From: Eledone cirrhosa
Lineage: Eukaryota
Direction: 5' to 3'
Assembly: GCA_964016885.1 (NCBI GenBank)
Contig: OZ024741.1
Location: 69,564,001-69,628,000, forward strand
DNA: 64,000 nucleotides
Both the position numbers and the translations under genes were made by a program. The notes below the pieces were generated by a model. It was not told the origin of the DNA. It worked only from the letters and a program-made list of their open reading frames with translations, and did not search any database. Position 1 is the stretch's first letter; every line of letters begins with the position of its first letter. Positions 598 to 63,870 of the stretch are shown here, piece by piece.

Positions 598-2331
598 TTA
601 ATATAGATATGAGCAGCTGGTTACAACCGGTTTGAACAGAAAGAAGTGAGAGAATTCTGACCGGATACGGCCGGTTTAAATACTAAAGGGTTAATGTACA
701 AAAATAACAAAATACTAAAATCAAAGACTAATATAATGACCAAGTCAAACCAAAGAGTATTGTAGTAATGAAAAATCTCTTTGTCGTGCTGCCGCCAATA
801 AATGTTTATTGTATTGTTTTCTTTCTCAGTTGGATTGTTTACAATGAATCGGCAAAGATATTTTGAACCACAGATTTAAAACATGCAAAAAAAAAAAATT
901 ATTTTATATTTTGTAAAATTTCTTCCTTTTTTTAAAAAAGAAAACAAAACGAAAAATTTTATTTTGGTTCTTTTATATTTTCTATATTATATATATATAT
1001 ATATATATAATTATTTTAAAATTTTGTTTCATTTTAATTTTCCATCTGTTTCATTTTAACTTCTCATTTAAAAAACGTTTTTTTTTTCTTACTATAATTG
1101 GTATCTATTGTCATTTAATTAATTGTTTCCCCCTCTTTCTCTCTCTCTCTATCTCTCTCTATCTGCCCCACTCTCATAAACACACACACATAGTGTGTTG
1201 GAGGTAGTCACACTACTATATATATATATATACACGCACTCACATATATGCAAATGCATATATACATATGCATACATATATATATATGTACATACACACA
1301 CATATATACAAATGCCTATGTACAGAGGTATGTTAGTATAAAAATGCTTGCACACACACACACTCATTCACTCATAAATATTTACAAGTAGTGTGTGAAA
1401 CAAATGATTTTGAAATCACAAATACCATTATTATTTCCATTTAAGTTTAATCAGCATCATCCATCTGAATATTGAGAACATCAGACAAATGAGTCAGTAT
1501 TTTATCAGTCATTGTTACCCTATCATATCAATACACTAGTAGAACTAGTAATGGCAGTACAAATTGCAATGGACTGAACTAGAACAAGAGAGAGGATGAG
1601 AGACTCTTTCTTACACAATTTTAAACTTCGGTTTTTGATCATAAACCTAGTCTTAAACTTGTTTTAGTTTGTGCAGTGGAGCATGATAATTCTTTGTTTT
1701 AAAATCACAGGCAACTTTCAGCCATATCTGTGCATGGAAATAACAATTTTCCTTTTTTTTTTTATATATTTCTATCAACGTAATCATAATTTATACCTTT
1801 GAAAATGTATCTCTGCAAAATATGCATTAAGAAAGTTATGAGGAAACAAAGTCAGATATGGGAGTATTAAACTGTAATTATACAAATGATGGATTATAAT
1901 ATTTACATAATTTTCCCTCATAGCTTCCTTAGTAATGCATGTTTTACAGATATATTTTCAATTGGTGGAAATTACGATTATGTTGGTAAAATTTTGTTTT
2001 TAAATTGTCATTTTCATGACCGCAAACTACCAGAAGCTTGTGATTTTAAAAATAAAGTATTATCAAAGAAAATGGCTGCATATTATCAACAAATATCTTG
2101 AAATGTGTTATTTCCTCATTCCCCTAGTGGTGCTTACAGTGAAAGTCAGAATTTGACTGAAAGATTTCTCTCTCTCTATCTCTCTCTCTCTCTCTCTCTT
2201 TTAAATCTTGAACATTTTCTTTCCAAGAACTTCAACAGCATAATTAAAAATTAGTGTTAACAAACCATATAATGTAATATATGCAATATATATCAATTAG
2301 TGTTAACCTACCATATAATATATGCAATATA

Positions 2332-2411
2332 CAGGATGTTCCCAAAAATTGTATACACATATTTATTAGAATGCTGTTGAAGTGTGTATACAATTTTTTG
2401 GGGAGACCCTG
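2332..2411. mobile_element. Tc1/mariner-type mini MITE inside a ~41-bp tandem repeat
   Basis: TA|CAGG...CCTG|TA with ~29-bp imperfect TIRs. A degenerate relative lies at about 51719-51815. Confidence 0.6.
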
Positions 2412-3084
2412 TATATCAGTTAGTGTTGATATACCATATAATATATGCAATATATATCAGTTAGTGCTAACATACTATGTAATATATGCAATATGTACGT
2501 CAATACTCATCTTTTTCCATTTCTTAGAGGGTTCTAAACCCCACTATCAGGCTAATTTTCTTTAGACAAAATATGGCGAAAGCTTCTATTTCTAACTCAA
2601 TTTCCAACTTCACTCGTCTTCAAAATAAAAATGCTTGCTTTGATATCAATTAACATCAACTTACATAAACAACTCCAAATTTACTCTCTCTGTGTTACTC
2701 TACATAATTTGCAACCTTGCTTCACATCTTCACTTTTTTCAGTGATAAAAAACAAACCAATATTCCGTATGTATATTTTTTTTTAAATCTTACAATAATA
2801 CATATGCATGGGTTGCATCAGTATACAAGGGTCAGCTGAAAATTAGTCAGTGAAAAGAGTCAGAGTTTAACCATTAAAAAAATGTGCACAGTATTACTTC
2901 ATTGTGTATGTGTATATGTATAGTCAACAAAGAAATACAATACAGGAGAAGAATATATGCAATAAAGGTATTTTGGTTTAACACTTCATTGGAAGATATA
3001 TATATATGTAAGTTTATCCTGGGTCAATCGGGAGTAACCACAGTAAACAGTTCTAACCCTGTAGAAACCATTTATATATGTGAT

Positions 3085-3422: not shown

Positions 3423-4334
3423 CTATATATATATATGTATAAGGAAAATTATTTTTAAAAAAGGGTTTGAAAAGTGCACCTGGTATCTATATATATATAG
3501 AGAGAGAGATTTCTTTATATATATATAAAGGACCTTTATAACATGTACAAAAATTGATGTTAGTACATCAATCTTTGTACATGTTATAAGGATCCTTCAC
3601 ATATATATATATACCAGGTGTGCTTTTCAAACCCTCTTTTTAAATCATTTTCCTTATATAACATGATCTGTATAGAACGTTTTCTAATGTTCACACTTTT
3701 TTCATTATATATATATATATATATAAAGATGATACACATCTTTTTCCATTCAGTGGGTTTCTATGCCTTGTTATTAGACTATATTATCTAGTCAAATGTT
3801 ACGGCAAAGCCTTCTATTTCAATTTTCAAACTTCACCTGCTGCTTTCAAAACATACTGCAACACACACACATACTGTAGATGTGGTTGGTGTTAGGAAGG
3901 TCATCCAGCTGTAAAAATCCCAACCAAAATACAGTTCCATCTGAGTAAGGTATGGTGTGGCCAGACATGTCTCATGATTGATATGGGCGACCCATCTAAT
4001 CCATGCAAGCATGGAAAAATAGATGTTATATAGTGATGGTGATATATATATGTATAGCTGAATTTTGTTTAGTTCATCCATAAATTTTTCAGAAGCAAGA
4101 GAGAGAGAGAGATTAACACATCCTCATTATAGTAGCAGTATATACACAGATACATATATATATATATATATATATACTTACACCTACAGAGATGCATTTA
4201 TATTTATGTAAATATGTACACACACACACATAGATAGGCACAAACACATAAATATATTTTTGCACCTCCATTGCAGCAATGTCTGGACAGTATGTCCAGA
4301 AGGTTCTACATGGCATCAATTTTTTCATCTTCCA

Positions 4335-18871: not shown

Positions 18872-19756
18872 TTTATATGCATGTAAATAATGGTTTCTAG
18901 TATAGGCACAAGGCCAACAATTTTGGGGAAAGAGAAAAATCGATTAAATCGTCCCCATAAGGATGAAAGGCAAATTCGAACCAAGAAGGTAAAGGGCCGT
19001 AACTATGTCCTGAAACATGTTGCCCGACAATTTGCCGATACTGCTAATCCCCTACCCTTATGTATGAAAATAATGACATTGAAGTTTATGTCTTTTGTGA
19101 TTTTCATCTTGGATTCATTTTCCTATTCTTTAATGGCTTGGGTATTTTCTTGATTATTATTATTTTGGGTTTTAAGTTGTGTTGTACGAACTAACTTCCC
19201 GGTGCATGGCATCACGTCATCTAGGTAGATAGTTTAAGGGTTTAAAGTCGAGAGATGAGAGAAACTGGAGCATGCCCTTTTACATTACTAGGATTTTTTC
19301 AACACGCTGATGTGTATGTATATATGTATGAGCGTGTGTGTATGTGCATATGCATACGTTTATATGTATGAGTATATAAATATAAACGCGCAAACACAGG
19401 CACTCTCACAGACATACATTCACACAAATACACATATACTCACACAAACACATACACATTGAATGACGGACGGAAGTCGCTCAAATTTATATATAGATGG
19501 AGTTATAATCGCTGCAGATATAATAACTTTATTATATAGAAACTATGTAATATGACAGCTTCAGCTTGATAACGCTTGTCTTCCCCATTTGATGGCTGTT
19601 GCAGTCAGGTTCAGTATGCCGAGTGTGGGAAGGTGGGTGGTCCACATTCAGTTTGCCGAATTTGGAATGTGGGTTGTGGGTTGGTTTAGCAGGAGTCATG
19701 AGTGCAAGTTGGTGATTAGTTTATGATGTTTGCTAAGTGTTTGTGGACTGATTTAC

Positions 19757-19797
<41 letters not shown>

Positions 19798-19802
<5 letters not shown>

Positions 19803-21327
19803 TATTTATTATTGCCCTTCAGGCTATAACAGAGGAGTTCAAGACCGGCTGCCCATGGGAACTCCTATACGCAGATGATCTAACGCTCATAGCTGAATCA
19901 ATGACCGAACTAGAGAAGAAATTCCAAACATGGAAGCACGGCCTAGAATCAAAAGGCCTTAAAATTAACCTGGCTAAGACTAAAGTTCTAGTTTGTAGGA
20001 AAGAAAATAAGGCGGCGGTCCCATCTGGGAAATGGCCATGCTCAGTGTGTAGGAAAGGCGTAGGTAGAAACTCCATTTTGTGTCCCAAATGCAAAGTATG
20101 GGTGCATAAAAGATGTAGTGGGATCACAGGTAAGCTAACTAAGAATATAGATTTTACATGTGGCCAGTGCTCAGGTGCAATAAGTAGCAGCAAGTGCCCA
20201 CAAAATACTAGCTCATTCCATTGCACAGATGGTTCTATAGAAATAGTGGACAGCTTCCGTTACCTGGGTGACAAAATCAGCAGTGGGGGAGGGTGCTCTG
20301 AAAGTACAGTAGCTAGAGTCAGAACTGGTTGGAAAAAGTTCAGAGAGCTTATACCACTATTAGCCGCTAGAGGGTTCTCCCTAAAAATGAAAGGCAGGTT
20401 ATACGATGCCTGCATACGAACAGCAATGCTGCATGGCAGTGAGACCTGGGCATTGTGTGCAGAGGATATACGCAGACTAGAGAGGAACGAAGCTTGCATG
20501 CTCCGCTGGATGTGCAATAGTAATATACGTGAACGGCAAAGCATAAACGAACTAAGGAAAAAATTAGAAATAAGAGGGATCAGATGTTTACTCGAGAGAA
20601 GGCTACGTTGGTACGGACACGTGATGCGCATGAAAGACGACAGCTGTATAACAAAGTGCAGGGCAATAAAGATAGACGGTAGCCACGGAGTAGGCAGACC
20701 CAGAAAAACATGGGACGAGCTGATAAATTCCGACCTCACACGCTTACACCTCTCCAAGACAATGTCACTGGACCGAGACCTTTGGCGGTGCTCAGTAATA
20801 GAGAAGACCTGCCTTACCTAAATACAAAGTAAAAACCTACTACAGTCAGTAGGCATCTCTATCAAAACACACCCCCGTCCCACCACCTCCACCCCATCCA
20901 CACCGCCCCTTTCAATGTAAAGTTATGTTGGTCCCACAACATCCAGGCCGAAACAAATGAGATCGTGTAGGTGTCACGACAAAAAAAAACACACAGTCTA
21001 CGCTGTAAATGTGGCCGTGTAGGCAACACGGTAAAAACCTCCCAGCCCCACACTGTAAATGTGGTTGGTGTTAGGAAGGGCATCCAGCTGTAGAAAACCC
21101 GCCAGACAGTCCACGCTGTAATGTGGCCGTGTAGGCAACACGGTAAAAACCTCCCAGCCCCACACTGTAAATGTGGTTGGTGTTAGGAAGGGCATCCAAC
21201 TGTAGAAAACCCGCCAGACAGTCCTATGCGAGCAAGACAACCACTCTTGCCTCAAGTGGGAAAACCCCCGTCCAAACCCATGCAAGCGTGGAACACGGAC
21301 GCTAAACCTGATGATGATGATGATGAT
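19798..21327 (+). mobile_element. 5'-truncated RTE-clade LINE with a PHD finger in the RT, antisense in GAPDH intron 6
   Basis: ORF has LLYADD, KINLAKTK, FRYLG, LHGSETW, RRLRWYGHV and GRPRKTW. The 3' UTR has a ~115-bp tandem duplication and a (GAT)n tail. Confidence 0.93.
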
Positions 21328-42907: not shown

Positions 42908-44885
42908 AGATATGAAGACAGGCAAGGCAGCTGGGCCTTCGGAGATAGTTGCTGAAAGTATCTGGAACGGTGGGACACACTATGGTCACCCGGATAGTAA
43001 ACCAAGTCATACAGAACGGGGTCATACCAAATGACTGGCGTAGCAACATCATCATTAACTGCTACAAGGGTAAAGGAGATGCCCTAGATAGGGGAAACTA
43101 TAGAGGCATTAAATTAATTGACCAGGTCATGAAGGTTACAGAAAAAGTTATAGCGCAACTAATCAGAGAACGAATTGATCTAGACGAAATGCAGTTTGGG
43201 TTTGTGTCAGGTAAAAGTACCACAGACGCCCTTTTCCTTGTACGACAACTACAGGAGAAGTACCTAGATAAAAGTAAACCCCTATACTTAGCTTTTGTTG
43301 ACTTGGAGAAAGCATTTGGCAGAGTCCCCCGCACCACTATATGGTGGGCGCTTAACAAACTAGGGGTTGATGAATGGCTTGTGAGAGCTATACAAGCCAT
43401 GTATAAAGAAACAGTCAGCAAGGTTAGAATTAACAACGAATATAGTGAAGAATTTAGCATAAAAGTTGGGCTCTGTCCTTAGCCCCCTCCTATTTATTAT
43501 TTCCCTTCAGGCTATAACAGAGGAGTTCAAGACCGGCTGCCCATGGGAACTTCTATATGCAGATGATCTAATGTTCATAGCTGAATCGATGGCTGAACTA
43601 GAGAAGAAATTCCAAACATGGAAGCATGGCCTAGAATCAAAAGGCCTTAAAGTTAACTTGTCTAAAGTTAACTATGTAGGAAGGAAAATAGGACACAGGT
43701 CCGCTCTGGGAAATGGCCATGCTCAGTGTGTAGGAAAGGAGCAGGCATAAATTCCATTTTATGTCCCAAATGCAAAGTATGGATGCATAAAAGATGTATT
43801 GGGATCACAGGTAAGCTATCTAAGAAAGTAGATTTTATATGTGGCCGGTGTTCAGGTGCAATAAGTAGCAAGTGCCCACAGGATACTAGCTCCTTCTATT
43901 GCCCAGATGGCTCTATAGAAATAGTGGACACCTTCCATTACCTGGGTGACAAAATCAGCAGTGGTGGAGAGTGCTCAGAAAGTACAGTAGCCAGAGTTGG
44001 AACAGGATGGAAAAAGTTCAGAGAGCTTATACCACTATTGGCAGCTAAAGGTTTCTCTCTAAAACATGAAAGGCAGACTGTATGATGCCTGCATACGAAC
44101 AGCTGTTACATGGCAGTGAGACATGGGTATTGTGTGCAGAGGATCTACGCAGACTGGAGAGGAACGAAGCATGCATGCTCCGGTGGATGTGTAATAGTAA
44201 TAAACATGAACAGCAAAGCATAAATGAACCAAGTGAGAAATTAGGTATAAGAGGGATCAGATGCTGTTTACTCAAGAGAATACTACGTTGGTATGGTCAC
44301 GTGATGCGCATGAAAGACGACAGCTGTATAAAAAAGTGAAGGGCGATCAAAATTGACGGAAGTTACGGAGTAAGCAGACCCAGAAAAACCTGGGACGATT
44401 TGATAAATTCCGACCTTACACACTTACACCTCTCTAAGACAATGTCACTGGACCGAGATTTTTGGCGCTACACAGTAATACAGAAAACCCACCTTGCCTA
44501 AGTACAAAGTGAAACCTACAGTCAGTAGGTACTTCTTAATCAAATATACACCCCATCCCTTTACCCCAACTCCGCCACCCCCACCAACACCACCCCTTTC
44601 TCTGTAAAGTTATCTTGGTATCACAACATCCAGTCCTAAATAAATGAGGTTGTGTAGGTGTCACGACAAAAACACACACACAGTCCACGCTGTAATATGG
44701 CCGAGGTAACACGGTAAAAACCTCCCAGTCCACACTGTAAACGTGGTTGGTGTTAGGAAGGGCATCCAGCCGTAGAAAACCTGCCAGACAGTCCTATACG
44801 AGCAAGACGACCAATCTTGCCTCAAGTGGGACCATTCCCGTCTAAACCCATGCTAGACATTAAACGATGATGATGATGATGATGA
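42908..44885 (+). mobile_element. Frameshifted RTE-clade LINE with a PHD finger (same family as 19798-21327)
   Basis: YKGKGDA, NYRGIKL, QFGF, AFVDLEKAF, LLYADD, PHD and HGSETW, with several frameshifts and a (GAT)n tail. Confidence 0.93.
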
Positions 44886-45068
44886 TATATATATATATAG
44901 AATTAGAATTTAGCTTTGAGCATAGCTGGATACAGATATGTATTGGAATTTCGTATTTCTAAAGAAATACAGTATGTTTATAAATAAACATTTAGAAAGC
45001 CGTAGCTATGCAAAAACACCAGCGGCTATAACCACCTGGCGGTCTCCAGCAGTTACAAGAGTGGGAGG

Positions 45069-45114
45069 AATTGTCCTGATTAGAACCAGTTCAGTTCGAA
45101 ATGCATCGACGATT
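45069..45114 (+). ncRNA. Minimal type I hammerhead ribozyme (G8U lesion)
   Basis: AATTGTC-CTGATTA-GAAC(CAGTTCA)GTTC-GAAA-TGCA-TC^GACGATT. Confidence 0.75.
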
Positions 45115-45399
45115 GTCCCCGTTGCTTCTGCTGGACACCACCAGGTTGCGATAGCTACCAGTTTTTTTGCATAGTTACGGCTTTCTAAATGTTTATTTAT
45201 ATACATACTGTATTTCTTTAGAAATTCGAAATTCCAATACATATCTGTATCCAGCTATGCCCGAAGCTAAATTCTAATTCTATTCTATTATAAGTTGAGC
45301 GAACTTATACAGCTTTATATGCAAATGAGATTAATCATTTACACAGATGAGAAAACTATATATTCTTGCCTGTTTTCAAGTTCAGCAGTTGCAAGAACA

Positions 45400-45454
45400 G
45401 GAGGGATTGTCTTGATGAGAACCAGTTCAGTTCGAAATGCATCGACAATTCTCC
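45400..45454 (+). ncRNA. Minimal type I hammerhead ribozyme (C3U)
   Basis: GGAG-G-GATTGTC-TTGATGA-GAAC(CAGTTCA)GTTC-GAAA-TGCA-TC^GACAATT-CTCC. Confidence 0.8.
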
Positions 45455-46692
45455 CCCTTGCTTCTGCTGGACTCCACCAGGTCATAATAGCTGCTAGTGT
45501 TTTTGCATAGCTATGGCTTTCTAAATGTTTATTTATAAACATATCGTATCTCTTTTGAAATACGAAATTCCAATAGATATATATATATATTACAAAATGG
45601 TTGACTGAATATGACATGCTTTTAAAAAAAAAAAAAAAAAAAAAAAGGTATTATGTTCCTTCCTATTCTCACTATCTTTCTATTTCATTTCAATTTCTTC
45701 AAATACATTAGCCGACTACCAGGACAAATAATGAAAGAAGCAAATAATTAAAGAAGCTTCTTTCATTATTTGACCTGGTAGTCGGCTAATGTATTTGAAG
45801 AAATTCAAATCTTTTCCTCTCTATTCAGTCTCTGTGTCTTTCTCTCTCACTCTCTCTCTCTCTCTTCCTGCTTATGTGTGTATATGTGTGTGCTTGTGTT
45901 ACATGAGGGCCTCCTCACGGTCTAATTCTAGTCCTGGTTGTGATTGATATTAGTTCTGGTACATATATATATATATATTGGCAATGGTGTTGGTGGCAAA
46001 ATAGTGATAAGTTCTACCTCCAAAGTCCCTAGGGAAAATAAACTGGAGACAGGTGGATATCGTACATATTCAGACATATATATATATATTTTGTGTGTGT
46101 GTATATGGCAATCTGGTGCCACAACAAAAGCACCCAGTCCATCCTGTAAGATGGTCGTACTGGTAACATGACAAGAGGTTGCTCCCAATTCACTCTGTAA
46201 GGTCTTTGTGCTGGTCACATGACAAGAGGCCCCCAGTCCACCCTGTATAGAGGTCATGCTGGTGACACACGAAAAAATATTCAGTCCACCCTGTTGGCTT
46301 GTGATGCTACTTACACCATTAAAAAGAAATTGACTCAATCCACCCTGTAAAGTGGTTGTGCTTGTGACACGGCATAAAGCGTCCAGTTCAGCCTGTAAGG
46401 TGATTGATGTTAGGAAGGGCATCCAGCAGTAGAAACCAAGCAAAAATACAAATATGTATAAGAAAAATGTGGTCACCTAACTTGAATTGTTTCATAACAC
46501 AACCCGCCTAACCCATGTAAGCACAGAAAATGAACATTAAACCCTGATGATATTGATATATATAAATATATAGTAATATATGAGGTTATAGTGTAATAGT
46601 TCACTATTTTCATTGGTTAGATGAGTTAGGCTCAATGCACATTTTTACCCTTTGTTCTTCAGGAGTGAACAGTTACAGTAGCAAGACTAAGA

Positions 46693-55281: not shown

Positions 55282-55510
55282 GTATATATATATATAAATA
55301 TATATATTATGGAGTGCTGTTGGCTTTTCGCTGCGGTGTTTTCTATACCTTTCATTTATATATATATATATATGGCAAGTAAGTATGTTTTGAAACAGTG
55401 AGCGAGTTTGAAATTAGAAAATATATAGCTTTCACCGTATTTTTAACTAAAGGAATTTTAGCTTGATAACGGGGTTTAGAACCCTCAGATAAATGGAAAA
55501 AGATGAGTAT

Positions 55511-55581
55511 TGATGTACATGGGAGTCGAACCCACATCTGTGGTTATCGCGACCACTGTGCTACCATTACACCAACACATC
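55511..55581 (-). ncRNA. tRNA-like cloverleaf, second copy
   Basis: Reverse complement of 56008-56078. One U-G acceptor pair is U-A in this copy. Confidence 0.75.
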
Positions 55582-56007
55582 ACCCATCTCTTTCCATTCA
55601 AATTAGAAACTACATTCTTAGCGAGTTTAAATGGCAAGTAAGTATGTTTTGAAACAGTGAGCGAGTTTGAAATTAGAAAATATATAGCTTTCACCGTATT
55701 TTTAACTAAAGGAATTTTAGCTTGATAACAGGGTTTAGAACCCTCAGATAAATGAGAAAAGATGAGTATTGACGTACATGGGAGTCGAACCCACATCTGT
55801 TCGACTCCCATGTACGTCAATACTCATCTTTTTCCATTTATCTGAGGGTTCTAAACCCTGTTATCAAGCTAAAATTCCTTTAGTTAAAAATACGGTGAAA
55901 GCTATATATTTTCTAATTTCAAACTCGCTCACTGTTTCAAAAGATACTTACTTGCCATTTAAACTCGCTAAGAATGTAGTTTCTAATTTGAATGGAAAGA
56001 GATGGGT

Positions 56008-56078
56008 GATGTGTTGGTGTAATGGTAGCACAGTGGTCGCGATAACCACAGATGTGGGTTCGACTCCCATGTACGTCA
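56008..56078 (+). ncRNA. tRNA-like cloverleaf, probably non-decoding
   Basis: Acceptor GATGTGT/GTACGTC, D arm GTGT/GCAC, anticodon arm GTGGT/ACCAC with loop CGCGATA, T arm GTGGG(TTCGACT)CCCAT. Lacks U33 and purine 37. Confidence 0.75.
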
Positions 56079-56251
56079 ATACTCATCTTTTTCCATTTAT
56101 CTGAGGGTTCTAAACCCCGTTATCAAGCTAAAATTCCTTTAGTTAAAAATACGGTGAAAGCTATATATATATATATATAAAGAAAAAGGGATGAAATCGA
56201 AAATGCAACTGAAGTCTTATTTTTTTTAAAAATATATATATTTATTTGGTT

Positions 56252-56289
56252 CCTTTACCGGTTTCGCAGTTCTTCTGCTTTTCAAAAGG
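56252..56289 (-). ncRNA. Inverted copy of the U3-A8 hammerhead
   Basis: Exact reverse complement of 61909-61946. Confidence 0.8.
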
Positions 56290-57315
56290 TGAGTTGAGAT
56301 GGAGGGTCTGTGGTTTTTCTCACATCTGGTTGGTCTCTAAATGTTACTTGTTTTATATGGAAAAAGTGGCTCGAAAACCAGGTTTTTCGAGAAGTAATTT
56401 GATTGGTTTGTCAATAATTATAATAAATTTCGCGCCAGTTCGCGTTACAATAGTTCTTCAAATAAGAGGGGGGGGGGGGGGGGTTGTCGCAGGTTGTTTT
56501 TTCATATATGAGTGTTTGAATTTCTTTTTACTTGAAAAAATGAGGCTCACGAAGGCTTTTTTTTGGTTGGTTATAAATGAAATTTGGCTGTCACGTGAAC
56601 AAGTTTTCATTACATTTTTGCGCCCTTATTTGGAAAACTATTCTGTAGTCTTTATAGTGAATGTTATGACAATGGAGAGATAGTGGTCAAGGGAAAAGGG
56701 ATTGGAAGAAATGTTCTGGTTCAGTGAATATGGCCAGCTGTCAGAGTTCAGGTGTCAGAGTTCAGATTTTCTATTGAGACTGAAGATATGTGTTTATTTG
56801 TTTGCTTGTGTGTTTGTATATGTGTGTGTGTGTGTGTATATGTGTGTATTGGAAGATGATTCTATTAGTAGAGATGGGGGAGGGAGTTGTGTGTTATGTG
56901 TGTGTGTGCGAGTATGTTAGATAGAGAGAATATATATTTTGTGTGTGTGTATATATATATGTGTGTAGGAAAGTGGTTCTATTAGTAGAAATGGGGAGGG
57001 TGTTGTAGGTGTGGGGGTTGTTATGTGTGTGTATGGGTGTTATGTGTGTGGGAGTATGGTTAGCATGTTAAGATGAAGAGAATATATATATATATATATA
57101 TTGTGTGTGTGTGTATGTGTGTGTGTAGGAAAATGATTCCTTTAGTAGGAATATTTTTGAATGAACATATTTTCCTGACTTTTTCGTGTTTGCTATTGTA
57201 TTGCCAGTGCAAACGTATGTTTAAGGTTTATTTAGTTCGGGTTTTTATTTTCTAAAGTAGAAGGTGTTATGTGTGTGTGTGTGTATGTCATATTGTGGTG
57301 TTGACATAATGTATA

Positions 57316-57723
57316 TTAAACCTTATTTAATGTTGGTCTATATTTTTGAATAAACATATTTTCCTTATTTATTCGCATTTGTTCTGTTGTATTGTTAGCG
57401 CAAAGGTAAAATGGGAAGACTTGGAATTTGGGTGTCTTATTACTTGCGCAAATGTCTAGATATGCACTTAGTGGTATCTGTCTCGTGGTTGGATCTCGTA
57501 ATTGTTGGCGATGAACTGTCATTCTGTTTCTGAGTGTGAGTTTAGTTTGTCCTATATAATCTTCATTGCATCCTTTACATTTAATGGCATAAATTAGATT
57601 TTTTGATGAGCAAGTGAAGTGATTTTTTACAGTAAAATTTTGTCCTGATTTAAATGTATACGTGTTGCCTTCAATGAGGTGAGTGCAGGTTCCACAATTA
57701 GAGCGACCACATTTTTTGATACT
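57316..57723 (-). other. Inverted duplicate of the PLE GIY-YIG coding region
   Basis: Translation is identical to the C-terminal part of ORF 60369..60884. Confidence 0.9.
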
Positions 57724-57907
57724 AATCAACATATGGACTTAAAAGCTCACAGCCCGCAAATTCGCCCTTTGGAATCTCCTAAAAAATAATGGCAAGGCAG
57801 ACATATATGAAAAGTGGCTAAACTCTACCCCAATCATCCTCCCCAAAAAACTCCAAATAAAACCCATCCCGAATGAACCAGAAAACCAACAAAGACTTAG
57901 GGAAAAG

Positions 57908-58648
57908 ATGGCATTGGAAAAATTTAAAACAGAAATAGAACTGTTGCGATTAAGAGCCAACTCCAACGAAGAAAAATTCAAGTCACTCGACCAACAGATG
58001 GACACAGAAATCTCAAAGCACTCTGAAGGCCTACTCTACAAAAAAACCCTAAAACTTTGGAAAGAAAACTGTGAGGATGAAGAACTCACATCCCTCCAGC
58101 GATGGGAAAAAAACGCCACCTGGTTCAACAACTACGAAATGGACTTCAAAAATGAACAACATACAGGTAACCCATTTTTAAAACAAACTAAAACTCACAC
58201 ACCACATGCACAACAAATAACAAAAAAAGTAACAAAACGTCCAACATACCCCCAGCAAAACTATAACGATAATCCCAGAAACCATAGACAAAACTATAAC
58301 CCTACTAACAAAAACCAAAGATCCCCGAACACAAGGCAGGACCTGATCCGCAGATCACAACCCACACAAAACCTATTCCAAAACCGTAGACCCCTGCCCA
58401 CACAGAGCCTGTTCCAAAACCATAGATCCCAACCCACACAAAGGAACCAAATCTACAACCCGGACTATCAACAAACCGAACCTCAATACGTCCGAAACTT
58501 CTATACAAGACCACACAACAACAGGGGAAATACCATTAGATATAATAATACCAATGAAAAAACATTCCAGAAAAATCATTTTTTAGACCAAGGCTACAGG
58601 ACTCACGACACCCGGTGGCACAAACCGATTTTGAAAAACCGAAAATAA
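57908..58648 (+). CDS. PLE upstream ORF1 (coiled-coil-like N half, N/Q/R/P-rich C half)
   Basis: 246-aa ORF whose frame is open from about 57742. It overlaps the RT frame by about 90 nt. Confidence 0.6.
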   Translation: MALEKFKTEIELLRLRANSNEEKFKSLDQQMDTEISKHSEGLLYKKTLKLWKENCEDEELTSLQRWEKNATWFNNYEMDFKNEQHTGNPFLKQTKTHTPHAQQITKKVTKRPTYPQQNYNDNPRNHRQNYNPTNKNQRSPNTRQDLIRRSQPTQNLFQNRRPLPTQSLFQNHRSQPTQRNQIYNPDYQQTEPQYVRNFYTRPHNNRGNTIRYNNTNEKTFQKNHFLDQGYRTHDTRWHKPILKNRK

Positions 58649-60884
58649 TTAACATTTCAAATACAAACCTCTCAGCCCAACAAGTAAAAATTCTCTCCAA
58701 AGGTCTGAAATTCACACCAACACCACAATATCCTAACCCCAACGAGATAAATGACGATATCTCACACTTCTGTAGAAAATTACGTCTCACAGAGGAATTC
58801 TTTGACAAGGAGAATAACGACGAATCAATTGTACGGAATAAAAGCAGCTACAACCCAACAAAAGGTAGAAACAGAGTTCTGGACAAATTTTGTGACCACA
58901 TAGCTACCTTCCCATACCATGAACTACCGCAACCTAAACCCAAACCCAACACAAGTCGAAGGGAATGGGAGATTATCCATGAACTAAAAAACAATCCGGA
59001 CATTGTAATTAAGGATGCGGACAAGGGAAGTACTGTTGTCATTATGGAGGCTGAAAAATATAAAAATTCTATGTTCTCTCTCTTACAAAATGCTAATTAC
59101 TATGAAAGAGTAAAAAACTACCAGCAATCAAAAATAATGACCAAATTAAACACACTGATTTATCGATACCAGTAAGACCTAACTAAAAAGGAACGCGATT
59201 ATTTAACAAATTTTGAATACAAAACCAGCAACCTTTACAGACTTCCGAAGATCCACAAATGTAAAATAATCAACGATGCCTGTAAACAATCCACCTCAGC
59301 CTGCGTGAACACACAATACCCCACAGACCTTAAATTAAGACCAATTGTAGCGGGCCCACAATGTGAAACACACAGATTGAGCAACTTTATAGACATACTA
59401 CTGAAACCAATACTGAAACACATACCAAGCCTTGTAAGAGACGATCTGGACCTCTTAAACCACCTCCCCAAACATGTCAACAACGACACTATTATTGTGT
59501 CTTTCGATGTAGTGAATCTCTACACAACGATCCCACACCAATACGGACTAGAAGCAATAGGATTCTGGCTAGAGAAATATCCCAATGAGATACCTGACAG
59601 AATAGAAAAAAGCTTCATCACCGAGGGATTAAAATTCATCCTACAGAACAACTTTTTTGATTTCGATGGCAATACTTACAAGCAAATATCGGGGACTGCG
59701 ATGGGCACAAAAGCCGCTCCAACTTATGCCAACTTAGTCATGGCATACTTAGAAGTCCAGATATATGAACAGTCCAAATCAAAATACGGATTGAACTTCC
59801 ACAAATATTTATCAGAGAATTGGAAACGCTACTTGGATGATTGCCTCATTCTTTGGTCCCACACACTCGACCAACTGAAGGATTTCAAAAACTTAATAAA
59901 CGGCATCAATAACCACATCCAATTCACAATGGAATACAGCCAAGATCAACTCCCATTTCTGGACATCTTAATCACAAAAAAGACACAAATATCGAAACTG
60001 ACATACACTACAAACCAACAGATTCCAAACAATATCTGCTATTCACCTCCAACCATCCAAAGCACACGAAGACGAACATTCCTTTTAACCTAGCAAGAAG
60101 AATTTGCACAATTGTCTCCAATTATGAAACGCGAAATAAAAGACTTCAAGAATTAAAGGAAATTCTACTTGAGAGAGAGTACCCACTATTACTAATAAAT
60201 AATGGAATAGAAAGGGCTAAAGCAATAGGCATTGATGAATTACGGAAACAGAAACAAATTCAAGGTACGTCCAATATTCTATCATATATCTCAACACACA
60301 ACCCAAGAAATGCGGAAGCTTACAACACTATTCACAATAACATCCCACTACTAAAACAAAACCCAAGAATGAAAAAAGCCCTTGAAACACACAAAATAAT
60401 CAAAAGCAAAAGACAACTAAAATCACTGAAAACATTACTCACCAATGCCAAATTACCTACCACAAACCCACAACCAAGTATCAAAAAATGTGGTCGCTCT
60501 AATTGTGGAACCTGCACTCACCTCATTGAAGGCAACACGTATACATTTAAATCAGGACAAAATTTTACTGTAAAAAATCACTTCACTTGCTCATCAAAAA
60601 ATCTAATTTATGCCATTAAATGTAAAGGATGCAATGAAGATTATATAGGACAAACTAAACTCACACTCAGAAACAGAATGACAGTTCATCGCCAACAATT
60701 ACGAGATCCAACCACGAGACAGATACCACTAAGTGCATATCTAGACATTTGCGCAAGTAATAAGACACCCAAATTCCAAGTCTTCCCATTTTACCTTTGC
60801 GCTAACAATACAACAGAACAAATGCGAATAAATAAGGAAAATATGTTTATTCAAAAATATAGACCAACATTAAATAAGGTTTAA
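58579..60884 (+). pseudogene. PLE reverse transcriptase plus GIY-YIG endonuclease, disrupted
   Basis: LSKGLKF, ADKG, LPKIHK, RPIV, DVVNLYT, GTAMG, RYLDD, LPFLD, CGRSNCGTC and NLIYAIKCKGCNEDYIGQT. In-frame TAA at 59173-59175 and a 1-nt frameshift in an A-run near 59976-59981. Confidence 0.9.
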
Positions 60885-61908
60885 TATACATTATGTCAAC
60901 ACCACAATATGACATACACACACACACATAAAACCTTCTACTTTAGAAAATAAAAACCCGAACTAAATAAACCTTAAACATACGTTTGCACTGGCAATAC
61001 AATAGCAAACACGAAAAAGTCAGGAAAATATGTTCATTCAAAAATATTCCTACTAAAGGAATCATTTTCCTACACACACACATACACACACACACAATAT
61101 ATATATATATATATATTCTCTTCATCTTAACATGCTAACCATACTCCCACACACATAACACCCATACACACACATAACAACCCCCACACCTACAACACCC
61201 TCCCCATTTCTACTAATAGAACCACTTTCCTACACACATATATATATACACACACACAAAATATATATTCTCTCTATCTAACATACTCGCACACACACAC
61301 ATAATACACAACTCCCTCCCCCATCTCTACTAATAGAATCATCTTCCAATACACACATATACACACACACACACACATATACAAACACACAAGCACACAA
61401 ATAAACACATATCTTCAGTCTCAATAGAAAATCTGAACTCTGACACCTGAACTCTGACAGCTGGCCATATTCACTGAACCAGAACATTTCTCCCAATCCC
61501 TTTTCCCTTGACCACTATCTCTCCATTGTCATAACATTCACTATAAAGACTACAGAATAGTTTTCCAAATAAGGGCGCAAAAATGTAATGAAAACTTGTT
61601 CACGTGACAGCCAAATTTCATTTATAACCAACCAAAAAAAAGCCTTCGTGAGCCTCATTTTTTCAAGTAAAAAGAAATTCAAACACTCATATATGAAAAA
61701 ACAACCTGTGACAACCCCCCCTCCCCCCTCTCTTATTTGAAGAACTATTGTAACGCGAACTGGCGCGAAATTTATTATAATTATTGACAAACCAATCAAA
61801 TTACTTCTCGAAAAACCTGGTTTTCGAGCCACTTTTTCCATATAAAACAAGTAACATTTAGAGACCAACCAGATGTGAGAAAAACCACAGACCCTCCATC
61901 TCAACTCA

Positions 61909-61946
61909 CCTTTTGAAAAGCAGAAGAACTGCGAAACCGGTAAAGG
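61909..61946 (+). ncRNA. Minimal type I hammerhead with U3-A8 covariation
   Basis: CCTT-TTGAAAA-GCAG(AAGAA)CTGC-GAAA-CCGG-TA^AAGG. Confidence 0.8.
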
Positions 61947-62077
61947 AACCAAATAAATATATATATTTTTAAAAAAAATAAGACTTCAGTTGCATTTTCG
62001 ATTTCATCCCTTTTTCTTTATACTTCCACTCGTGTAGGACACCTCGGTTATTTTTCATTTTGTAAAAAAAACCTCAC

Positions 62078-62136
<59 letters not shown>

Positions 62137-62357
62137 TTAAAATAACAGATTAAAGTTTAAGCAAAGAATCGCTGCTTTCACCCTTAACGGGATCCCGTCT
62201 TTCCACAAACGAGCGTATTTTCAACGACCATTCCACTTATTACAATGAAGCTCTTGCTCGAAGTGGATTTGTCGATAAGGTAGCACATACAGAGTACGAA
62301 AATAGACCTAGAAGAAATAGATCCCGTCGCATTTGTTGGTATAACCCACCATATAAT

Positions 62358-63008
62358 ATGGAGGTGGCCACACCATTAGCTAAGATCTTTCTTTCCCTTA
62401 TTACGAAGCATTTTCCCCCTACACATAAATATAGTAACATTTTTAATAGAAATACTATTAAAATTTCTTACTCTACGACTCCTAACCTTGCACATAACAT
62501 CACAGCTTCAAATTTAGCTAAACTACCTAGCCGTGGGAACACATGCAACCCTGTAGTTAGTACTAACTGTAATTGTAGGAATCGGGTTGATTGCCCCCTA
62601 TCCGGGAAATGCCTCTCTAGTAACATTGTCCACAAATGTAACGTTGTAACACCCACGTCCCGTAGGGCCTACATAGGGTTAACCGCCAATAGATTCAAGC
62701 AGCGTCTTTACACGCATACACATTCTTTTCGTTACCCTCTAAGAAGGAATATGACGTCACTTTCAGCTTATACCTGGAGTCTAAAAGACAACCACACCCA
62801 ATATAAGTTACACTGGGAGATCCTAGCTAAGGCTAGATCGTATAACGGAAATAAAAGACCATGTGACCTCTGCGCCGCTGAGGCCCTGGAAATACTCTAC
62901 GCCACAGACCACATCTTAAACCAAAAATCTGAGGCAATTTCGGCTTGTAAACATAAATTGCACAACACTTTCCTGTATTACAGCGTCACGTTATACCTTA
63001 ATGGATAG
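62358..63008 (+). CDS. Naiad-type PLE C-terminal region with Cys-rich linker and GIY-YIG endonuclease (truncated)
   Basis: 216-aa ORF. The frame extends upstream to the truncation point (YNEALARSGF...WYNPPY). Confidence 0.75.
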   Translation: MEVATPLAKIFLSLITKHFPPTHKYSNIFNRNTIKISYSTTPNLAHNITASNLAKLPSRGNTCNPVVSTNCNCRNRVDCPLSGKCLSSNIVHKCNVVTPTSRRAYIGLTANRFKQRLYTHTHSFRYPLRRNMTSLSAYTWSLKDNHTQYKLHWEILAKARSYNGNKRPCDLCAAEALEILYATDHILNQKSEAISACKHKLHNTFLYYSVTLYLNG

Positions 63009-63170
63009 TACGATCTATACGTGGATATTTTACGTCTTGATGTGAGAGCTAAGTATATGTTTTGTTTATACCATTACTTATTTGCATAGCGAACGTTTCC
63101 ACGAACCAAAGTATCGTCTTCCTGTCTTCCTCCGGTTGCAACGTTTTTTGAAATATCCACTTCTGCGTTT

Positions 63171-63246
63171 ACAGATTGACTTTGTTAGTTTCAGAAGATC
63201 CCGTTAAGGGTGAAAGCAGCGATTCTTTGCTTAAACTTTAATCTGT
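63171..63246 (+). ncRNA. Type I hammerhead with variant core CAGAAGA
   Basis: ACAGATTGA..AGTTT-CAGAAGA-TCCC(GTTAA)GGGT-GAAA-GCAG...TTGC-TT^AAACT-TTAATCTGT. Confidence 0.65.
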
Positions 63247-63347
63247 TATTTTAATAAATATTTGCTCTACGGTTCTCATATATTTGATATATATTTATCC
63301 TTATCGAGCCCTCTTTGGATTTTAGTCTTGAAATTTATTATTATTAC

Positions 63348-63387
<40 letters not shown>

Positions 63388-63411
63388 GCAAACCTCTCTC
63401 TCTATATATAT

Positions 63412-63870
63412 AGTAATAATAATAAATTTGAAGACTAAAATCCAAAGAGGGCTCAATAAGGATAAATATATATCAAATATATAAGAACCCTAGAGCAAAT
63501 ATTTATTAAAATAACAAATTAAAGTTTAAGCAAAGAATCGCTGCTTTCACCCTTAACGGGATCTTCTGAAACTAAAAGAATCAATCTGTGAACGCAGAAG
63601 CAAATATTTCGAAAAACGTTGCAACCGAAGGAAAACAGGAAGACGATACTTTGGTTCGTGGAGACGTTCCCTGGCAATAAACGGAAATAAAGCGAAGCTA
63701 ATACGTCATTATGTGGATCGATGAGAACAATTACACACAAAGAGAAAACCACATTTATGGTATAAATAAAGTCGTAGACTAATATTCTATTTAGGAAACC
63801 GAATGATTCTCGGCTTCAGAGTTAAGAATAAATAAATTACAGGGGTTATTGAAATCAACAATAATTAAAT
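63412..63870 (-). mobile_element. Second, diverged Naiad-type 3' end/pLTR, tail-to-tail with the first
   Basis: 63412-63670 is an imperfect reverse complement of 63090-63348 and includes the hammerhead at 63514-63589. Confidence 0.75.

Follow-up and report, generated by a model that had tools for sequence, protein, structure and literature searches.

A high-copy octopod hammerhead repeat, most likely an animal non-LTR retrozyme, with insertion scars of the PLE type

The hammerhead locus of the window (the whole 64,000-nt stretch of DNA analysed here) is very probably an old copy of a hammerhead repeat that is high-copy, lacks an ORF and belongs to the animal non-LTR retrozyme kind; it was likely inserted into (TA)n by a PLE reverse transcriptase-endonuclease. 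The repeat is a high-copy family in two species and, judged by its sequence, most likely adds a new family, of octopod host, to the animal non-LTR retrozymes. With somewhat less confidence, its insertions can be read as a record of Penelope enzymology, namely two fixed RT starts ~39 nt apart, a mirror-image head per landing and (TA)n targeting, left by an RNA without ORF.

The locus was enclosed by (TA)n, with a microsatellite on the left (44885..44899, preceded by a GAT run and the probable target) and another on the right (45577..45590), and was made up of an inverted head, a complete unit of 336 nt and part of another. The head (44897..45052, minus strand) was a 5'-truncated reverse complement of 45128-45283 (156 nt, 90%) that included the tail extension, its outer end being uncertain by 3 nt in the (TA)n. 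At the inversion junction (45046..45052), 6-7 nt inside the outer clamp of the hammerhead were common to both orientations, in agreement with the ~155-bp inverted arm joined at CAGCAG microhomology that the initial annotation had described. The first hammerhead was followed on the plus strand by a 3' segment (45135..45244) reaching the short family end at 45239-45244, by a tail of ~39 nt (36-44 nt; 45245..45283) lying between the two 3' ends of the family, and by a 99-nt non-coding spacer (45284..45382) at the place of the ORF in an autonomous PLE. The second hammerhead was followed by a second 3' segment (45471..45580, plus strand), which lacked the tail and stopped at the short end at 45575-45580. 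The tail was one-sided: the right end of the locus left the unit at the equivalent of 45239-45244, and the head matched out to 45280-45283, 36-44 nt farther.

The direct repeat covered 204 nt (45047-45250 and 45383-45586; 86%), or ~1.6 units and not two complete 336-nt units; Tandem Repeats Finder did not report it. The locus copies differed at 26 of 193 sites (about 14%). In the tail, 7 of 20 variable columns were compatible with CpG decay, as were 3 of 10 differences in the hammerhead, which ruled out CpG decay as the sole source of divergence. The longest stop-free frame in 44897-45590 had 83 codons, bearing out the lack of coding capacity noted at the outset, and LTR, PBS and PPT were absent from the unit (PBS and PPT judged by eye). 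A target-site duplication was unreadable within the (TA)n flanks. A hairpin at 45687-45810 (55-nt arms, 96%; 14-nt centre), 100 nt to the right of the locus, was MITE-like or another palindromic stump.

Hammerhead 1 (45047..45134, plus strand, type I) ran in the order of stem I strand, core CTGATTA (45076-45082), stem II as GAAC-7 nt-GTTC (45083-45097), GAAA, palindrome ATGCAT (45101-45106), C45107 and stem I partner, with the predicted AUC cut after 45107. Hammerhead 2 (45383..45470, plus strand) had the core TTGATGA (45412-45418), the palindrome at 45437-45442 and the predicted cut after 45443, which in the sequence reading lies 336 nt from the first. Stem II GAAC/GTTC, the ATGCAT palindrome and the outer clamp CAGCAG/CTGCTG were all present in both, as initially annotated. 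When both strands of the window were scanned with a hammerhead descriptor, three loose matches resulted, and two of them, the locus pair, passed a strict palindromic helix III filter. Ten shuffles under the same scan gave one loose and no strict match, so the pair was beyond chance. An Rfam search of the locus returned no hammerhead match, whether at the gathering score or with E as high as 10, and its four matches at E<10 were taken as chance.

Helix I had 7 bp and helix II 4 bp, helix III had 1-2 bp with a palindromic loop, and an extra base after A9 was absent. This geometry is that of the 'canonical' metazoan type I hammerhead of PMC4209133 and not that of the 'minimal' PLE class, described there with a helix II of 7-8 bp, a helix I of 4-5 bp and an unpaired base before stem II, from which the locus hammerheads differed on all three counts. 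The initial annotation had placed type, cuts and spacing correctly, and its term 'minimal' was a mislabel.

Each copy carried one altered core position, G8U in copy 1 and C3U in copy 2, leaving no intact core at the locus. The double-hammerhead fold of the natural 45047-45471 transcript reached -111.5 kcal/mol, versus -103.2 kcal/mol for two single folds and -113.8 kcal/mol unconstrained. In the dimer of the folding model, the cut at 45443 falls to the G8U core and that at 45107 to the C3U core. Single C3G or G8C changes abolish cutting (PMC11167929), and natural U3 variants are reported to be slower and presumably still active (PMC7151607); that G8U would be lethal is our own extrapolation. 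Since the G8U core works on the cut at 45443, the locus copy, with G8U and C3U, is predicted to be unable to release a monomer, which argues against the circRNA template initially proposed at this place. The unit itself (336 nt, GC 36%) had a moderately stable circular fold (z -2.6, 58% paired).

The family was compared in four of seven listed sequencing runs with one unit, 45047-45382, as the query at 80% likeness. Runs X1 and X2 were contigs from one sample of organism A, X4 contigs from organism B, and X5 RAD reads from organism A. These four runs came from two studies and contained part of the stretch (shares 0.15-0.48), and X1 may be the same sample as that behind the window. The unit matched 3507 contigs in X1, 3362 in X2 and 419 in X4, and 1265 reads in X5. 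The listings covered 15 of the 85 joints, 24 of the 811 loose ends and 24 of the 7551 pieces. Summed contig depth in X1 was ~50,000-100,000 versus 4-16 for single pieces, a value that is not a copy number, and contig counts were used instead; this depth hints at thousands of copies.

Position 45081 was G in 5828 of 5990 (X1), 5360 of 5559 (X2) and about 573 of 636 (X4) of the depth, and in 70 of 73 reads (X5). Because G made up 90-97% of the family depth there, CTGATGA is taken as the ancestral core, as the initial annotation had supposed from one lesion per copy. Position 45076 (C3) had no entry among the 40 of 183 rows listed, and the family letters at 45072 and 45121 improved the hammerhead stems. 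The cut base was A in place of C in 12% of X1, 6% of X4 and 219 of 384 reads of X5. By the NUH rule, A is permitted at the cut base of a hammerhead. The same is stated for H17 in PMC7151607.

Head-to-tail joints from 45379/45381 to 45047 were found in 5 contigs of X1, 4 of X2 and 1 of X4 and in 9 reads of X5 among the joints listed, and loose ends behind 45381 carried the hammerhead start sequence (37 and 33 contigs). A frequent 5-nt insertion after 45334, together with shorter joints, gave unit lengths of ~325-342 nt, so that the length of 336 nt first given holds for the window copy and not for the family as a whole. The claim of a retrozyme-like family gained from these public reads, which held an intact ancestral core and ORF-less head-to-tail units. 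Loose ends of (TA)n stood behind 45244 in 38 contigs of X1 and 34 of X2 (same sample), and (TA)n-like loose ends behind 45283 in 6 contigs of X4; the long 3' end (45283) was listed for organism B and the window locus only. Five of the 24 listed pieces left the unit at 45241-45244 and continued. The tail-spacer junction was bridged by 4 of the 24 listed pieces, each with 17-30 differing letters and so from other copies. Two of these reached 45375 and 45379, at most 7 nt from the next hammerhead, one per species. Among the joints listed, three in X4 were opposite-strand (1 contig each), at positions other than the locus clamp.

Among the 24 of 7551 pieces listed, none spanned the whole unit and none held two cores. 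Arrays of more than two hammerheads were absent among the joints and pieces listed, and an RT ORF attached to the unit was absent among the joints, loose ends and pieces listed. Three listed pieces had 360-872 nt upstream of the hammerhead, a sequence itself unseen, which could belong to a longer parent element. None of the runs listed was an RNA dataset containing the stretch, and metagenome pattern scans for the unit gave 0 matches. In the RAD run X5, 157 read ends piled up at 45233 and were set aside as a library feature. In X4, a ~36-nt part of the 3' segment (45179-45214) was common to a contig set of much greater depth (~100,000 versus 1,500-3,000 beside it), which may be a separate repeat or a related element.

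Before 45098, loose ends of 27 and 25 contigs and of 159 reads (agreement 0.73-0.75) led into a sister hammerhead with the core CTGACGA. Its stem II was AGGC/GCCT, with three of four pairs altered on both sides; the RAD consensus kept two of these changes and had one mismatch. In stem I, a U-A pair was replaced by C-G, matched by 45112 A>G in 52% of the X1 depth. Compensatory changes in stems I and II are thus shown, at the level of sequence, for the sister subfamily, and this covariation argues for selection on the RNA fold. The subfamily, set apart by its stem II, its stem I and the segment after the hammerhead (loose ends at 45098 and 45144), made up about half of the organism A depth at 45112 and ~7% of that of organism B.

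Animal non-LTR retrozymes are described as ORF-less head-to-tail repeats of 150-450 bp with GC under 50% (PMC7229834). At the family level the octopod repeat had a type I hammerhead with intact core, a head-to-tail unit within 150-450 bp, no ORF and GC <50%, and it resembled the retrozymes of PMC7229834 and 10.64898/2026.07.22.740005 also in its many copies and coexisting PLEs. The canonical type I hammerhead with a weak palindromic helix III resembled that of axolotl HHR_Amex1. Mussel retrozyme units have 350-390 bp, compared with 336 nt here and ~325-342 nt in the octopod family. The octopod repeat differed from animal retrozymes in its host, in being a dispersed insertion of 1.6 units and not a long array, in being known here from DNA sequence alone, and in its inverted head, one-sided tail and (TA)n ends. 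Inverted heads and tails were unmentioned in the main text of PMC7229834 ('inverted' 0, 'tail' 0), and the main text of the preprint 10.64898/2026.07.22.740005 had 'tail' 0 times and 'inverted' once, in a reference title. The same preprint asks for two intact hammerheads, and the window locus had both cores altered. No cephalopod retrozyme was found in the literature searched, although supplements, Lunse et al. 2017 and Repbase/Dfam may include the family; among the papers listed on octopus hammerhead ribozymes, none described such a family by title or abstract start.

The insertion structure resembled that of PLEs. In PMC8557442, PLE insertions are described as partial tandems whose 5' end bears an inverted 5'-truncated copy, with a tail of 30-40 bp on one of the two ends, and Pen2a_Av has two direct pLTRs, an adjacent inverted pLTR overlapping by 15 bp and a 31-bp tail (PMC3846280). 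The locus likewise had a partial tandem with an inverted 5'-truncated head, a one-sided tail of 36-44 nt and a (TA)n target. With EN+ PLEs (Penelope/Poseidon, Neptune, Nematis; Pen2a_Av; PAc) it shared two direct hammerhead repeats plus an inverted copy overlapping by a few bases, a one-sided tail in the range of 30-40 bp, an AT-rich target and 3' ends 100-180 nt past the hammerhead. In contrast to these elements, which carry a 2.5-3 kb RT/GIY-YIG ORF and a minimal hammerhead, the octopod unit had the 99-nt spacer in place of an RT and GIY-YIG ORF, and its hammerhead was canonical. Chlamys elements such as MRC1 (PMC8557442) are also ORF-less PLE derivatives with pLTRs and head-to-tail copies; they are algal, have no hammerheads and have 3' sequence in common with an autonomous partner that is known, whereas no such partner was found for the octopod unit. 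The inverted head, the ~39-nt one-sided tail and the (TA)n ends gave the PLE mobilisation suggested at first stronger evidence than the initial annotation had offered.

In vitro work with a PLE protein showed cutting and extension on both strands of AT-rich DNA, the tail being the stretch between two internal RT starts (PMC11167929). A multimeric RNA of the octopod unit would pair two ATGCAT palindromes into a 6-bp helix III, forming a double hammerhead, and would be cut to ~340-nt monomers that a host ligase could close into circles. The PLE protein would nick both (TA)n strands, and cDNA would start at two internal sites ~135 and ~175 nt past the cut; because both sites sit on AT-like bases of the unit, base pairing of both with the target is possible. 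Copying from the short start would yield the direct run of 1.6 units, and a circle or a linear multimer would serve equally well as its template. The long start would yield the 156-nt head, and the two cDNAs would pair with each other at the clamp stem, whose strands are complementary. Since the three X4 inversion joints listed lie elsewhere, clamp-guided joining is drawn from the window locus only. After insertion the copy would have decayed (~14% between copies, partly by CpG decay). The inverted arm is, on this reading, an insertion scar and not part of the unit.

Dimer cleavage and RtcB circularisation have been reported for axolotl and mussel retrozymes (PMC7229834), and of nine predicted frog retrozyme dimers, eight did not cut and one did (10.64898/2026.07.22.740005). 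The PLE hammerhead is dispensable for insertion in vitro (PMC11167929). Suitable octopus PLE enzymes exist, and none is singled out as the helper: the metadata of PMC8557442 include three Naiad families and one Hydra family for Octopus, all with (TA)n preference. Three short motifs of the unit were absent from the readable supplement of that source, and no resemblance was found between the unit and the window's PLEs, local scores being 25-29 versus shuffled maxima of 29-32.

Alternatively, the unit could be no more than a pLTR belonging to an autonomous PLE, in which case the locus would be a pile of that element's 5'-truncated stumps (solo pLTRs) without an ORF-less RNA of its own. PLEs show an identical tandem, inverted and tail structure, their copies are mostly 5'-truncated, retrozymes are related to pLTRs according to 10.64898/2026.07.22.740005, and the three pieces with 360-872 nt of upstream sequence also fit. 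Independent truncations would not, however, produce the identical tail-spacer junction seen in other copies of both species (the 4 of 24 listed pieces). Among the 24 of 811 loose ends listed, none behind 45283 or in the spacer entered a common longer sequence, the hammerhead geometry was canonical, of the retrozyme kind, and not PLE minimal, and an ORF start or end was not evident. We consider solo pLTRs an unlikely account of the locus.

Without any RNA step, unequal crossover could have duplicated a hammerhead-bearing pLTR stump locally or spread it as a satellite, as the 14% difference between the locus copies, expected of an old duplication, and the local amplification proposed in 10.64898/2026.07.22.740005 would allow. 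This seems very unlikely, given that dispersed copies with different flanks share two (TA)n end points and show inversions, that a one-sided tail is not a crossover product, and that the stem covariation implies selection on the RNA fold. Even less probable, to the point of being nearly negligible, is a MITE-like DNA element at 44897-45283 with an adjoining partial duplication. The long inverted repeats (156-nt terminal repeats around a 75-nt centre), the TA-rich flanks and the folding of 44897-45283 as one hairpin of -236.5 kcal/mol suit such an element, but in the family the right 'terminal repeat' goes on into the spacer and not into flank, the inversion points vary among copies (three X4 joints elsewhere) with no fixed palindromic form, and the centre is a covarying hammerhead.

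The preferred reading, a PLE-mobilised retrozyme, bears on what moves animal retrozymes, which is still a hypothesis. PLEs were proposed as helpers from co-occurrence (PMC7229834), retrozyme repeats are described as having no motif that points to a helper (PMC7761336), and pLTR homology was later added, with local DNA amplification allowed (10.64898/2026.07.22.740005). To these lines of evidence a family with PLE-specific scars adds a third, and it offers a substrate that is small and defined. If true, it would provide homology-independent footprint evidence that PLE proteins move ORF-less retrozyme RNAs, would place the cis signal within ~175 nt past the ribozyme cut, testable in the existing in vitro PLE assay, and would extend retrozymes to octopods. 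The window locus is a dead repeat copy, and retrozymes and PLE scars are each already known; the octopod family is useful as footprint evidence for PLE mobilisation of retrozymes. Dispersed copies of this kind are overlooked when a search requires a detected tandem with two intact hammerheads.

A recent PLE at 56176-62084 encoded an RT plus a GIY-YIG at the C terminus in an ORF interrupted by a few stops and shifts, with a CxxxxCxxC motif before the GIY-YIG, and was Neptune/Nematis-like by eye. Its inverted head had 1548 nt (99.4%), its 62-nt tail was one-sided and its ends lay in (TA)n, and it carried a small hammerhead (U3-A8) with the palindrome ACCGGT at 61913 and its mirror at 56285. Its RT matched Octopus bimaculoides best (78%), with other octopods and bivalves next (best 120 of 245 matches), a result that favours an octopod as the host. 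Its different hammerhead, its 62-nt tail and the lack of similarity ruled it out as the direct parent of the unit; it could act on the unit in trans. A second PLE-like fragment (62130-63672) had a 284-aa frame with a GIY-YIG-like end by eye and adjoined a 588-nt inverted repeat (91.5%); it had no Pfam match, and no hammerhead in a relaxed scan.

The PLE at 56176-62084 sat in the (TA)n that ended a young non-coding element at 55369-56168 (97-98% identical), which had a 259-nt period, a partial tandem plus inverted copy and ends 52 nt apart, in (TA)n. This element, which may be an octopus SINE (a literature search for the SINE motif gave no match), contained an intact-looking tRNA-Ser(CGA) at 55510-55582 (minus strand) and 56007-56079 (plus strand). 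Older copies stood at 2493-2638 and 3732-3857; the scars were of PLE type, with the tRNA where the hammerhead would be. Two LINE fragments, both decayed and RT-bearing and with a PHD-like finger behind the RT, occurred at 19727-20821 and 42949-44500, the second ending 400 nt to the left of the hammerhead locus.
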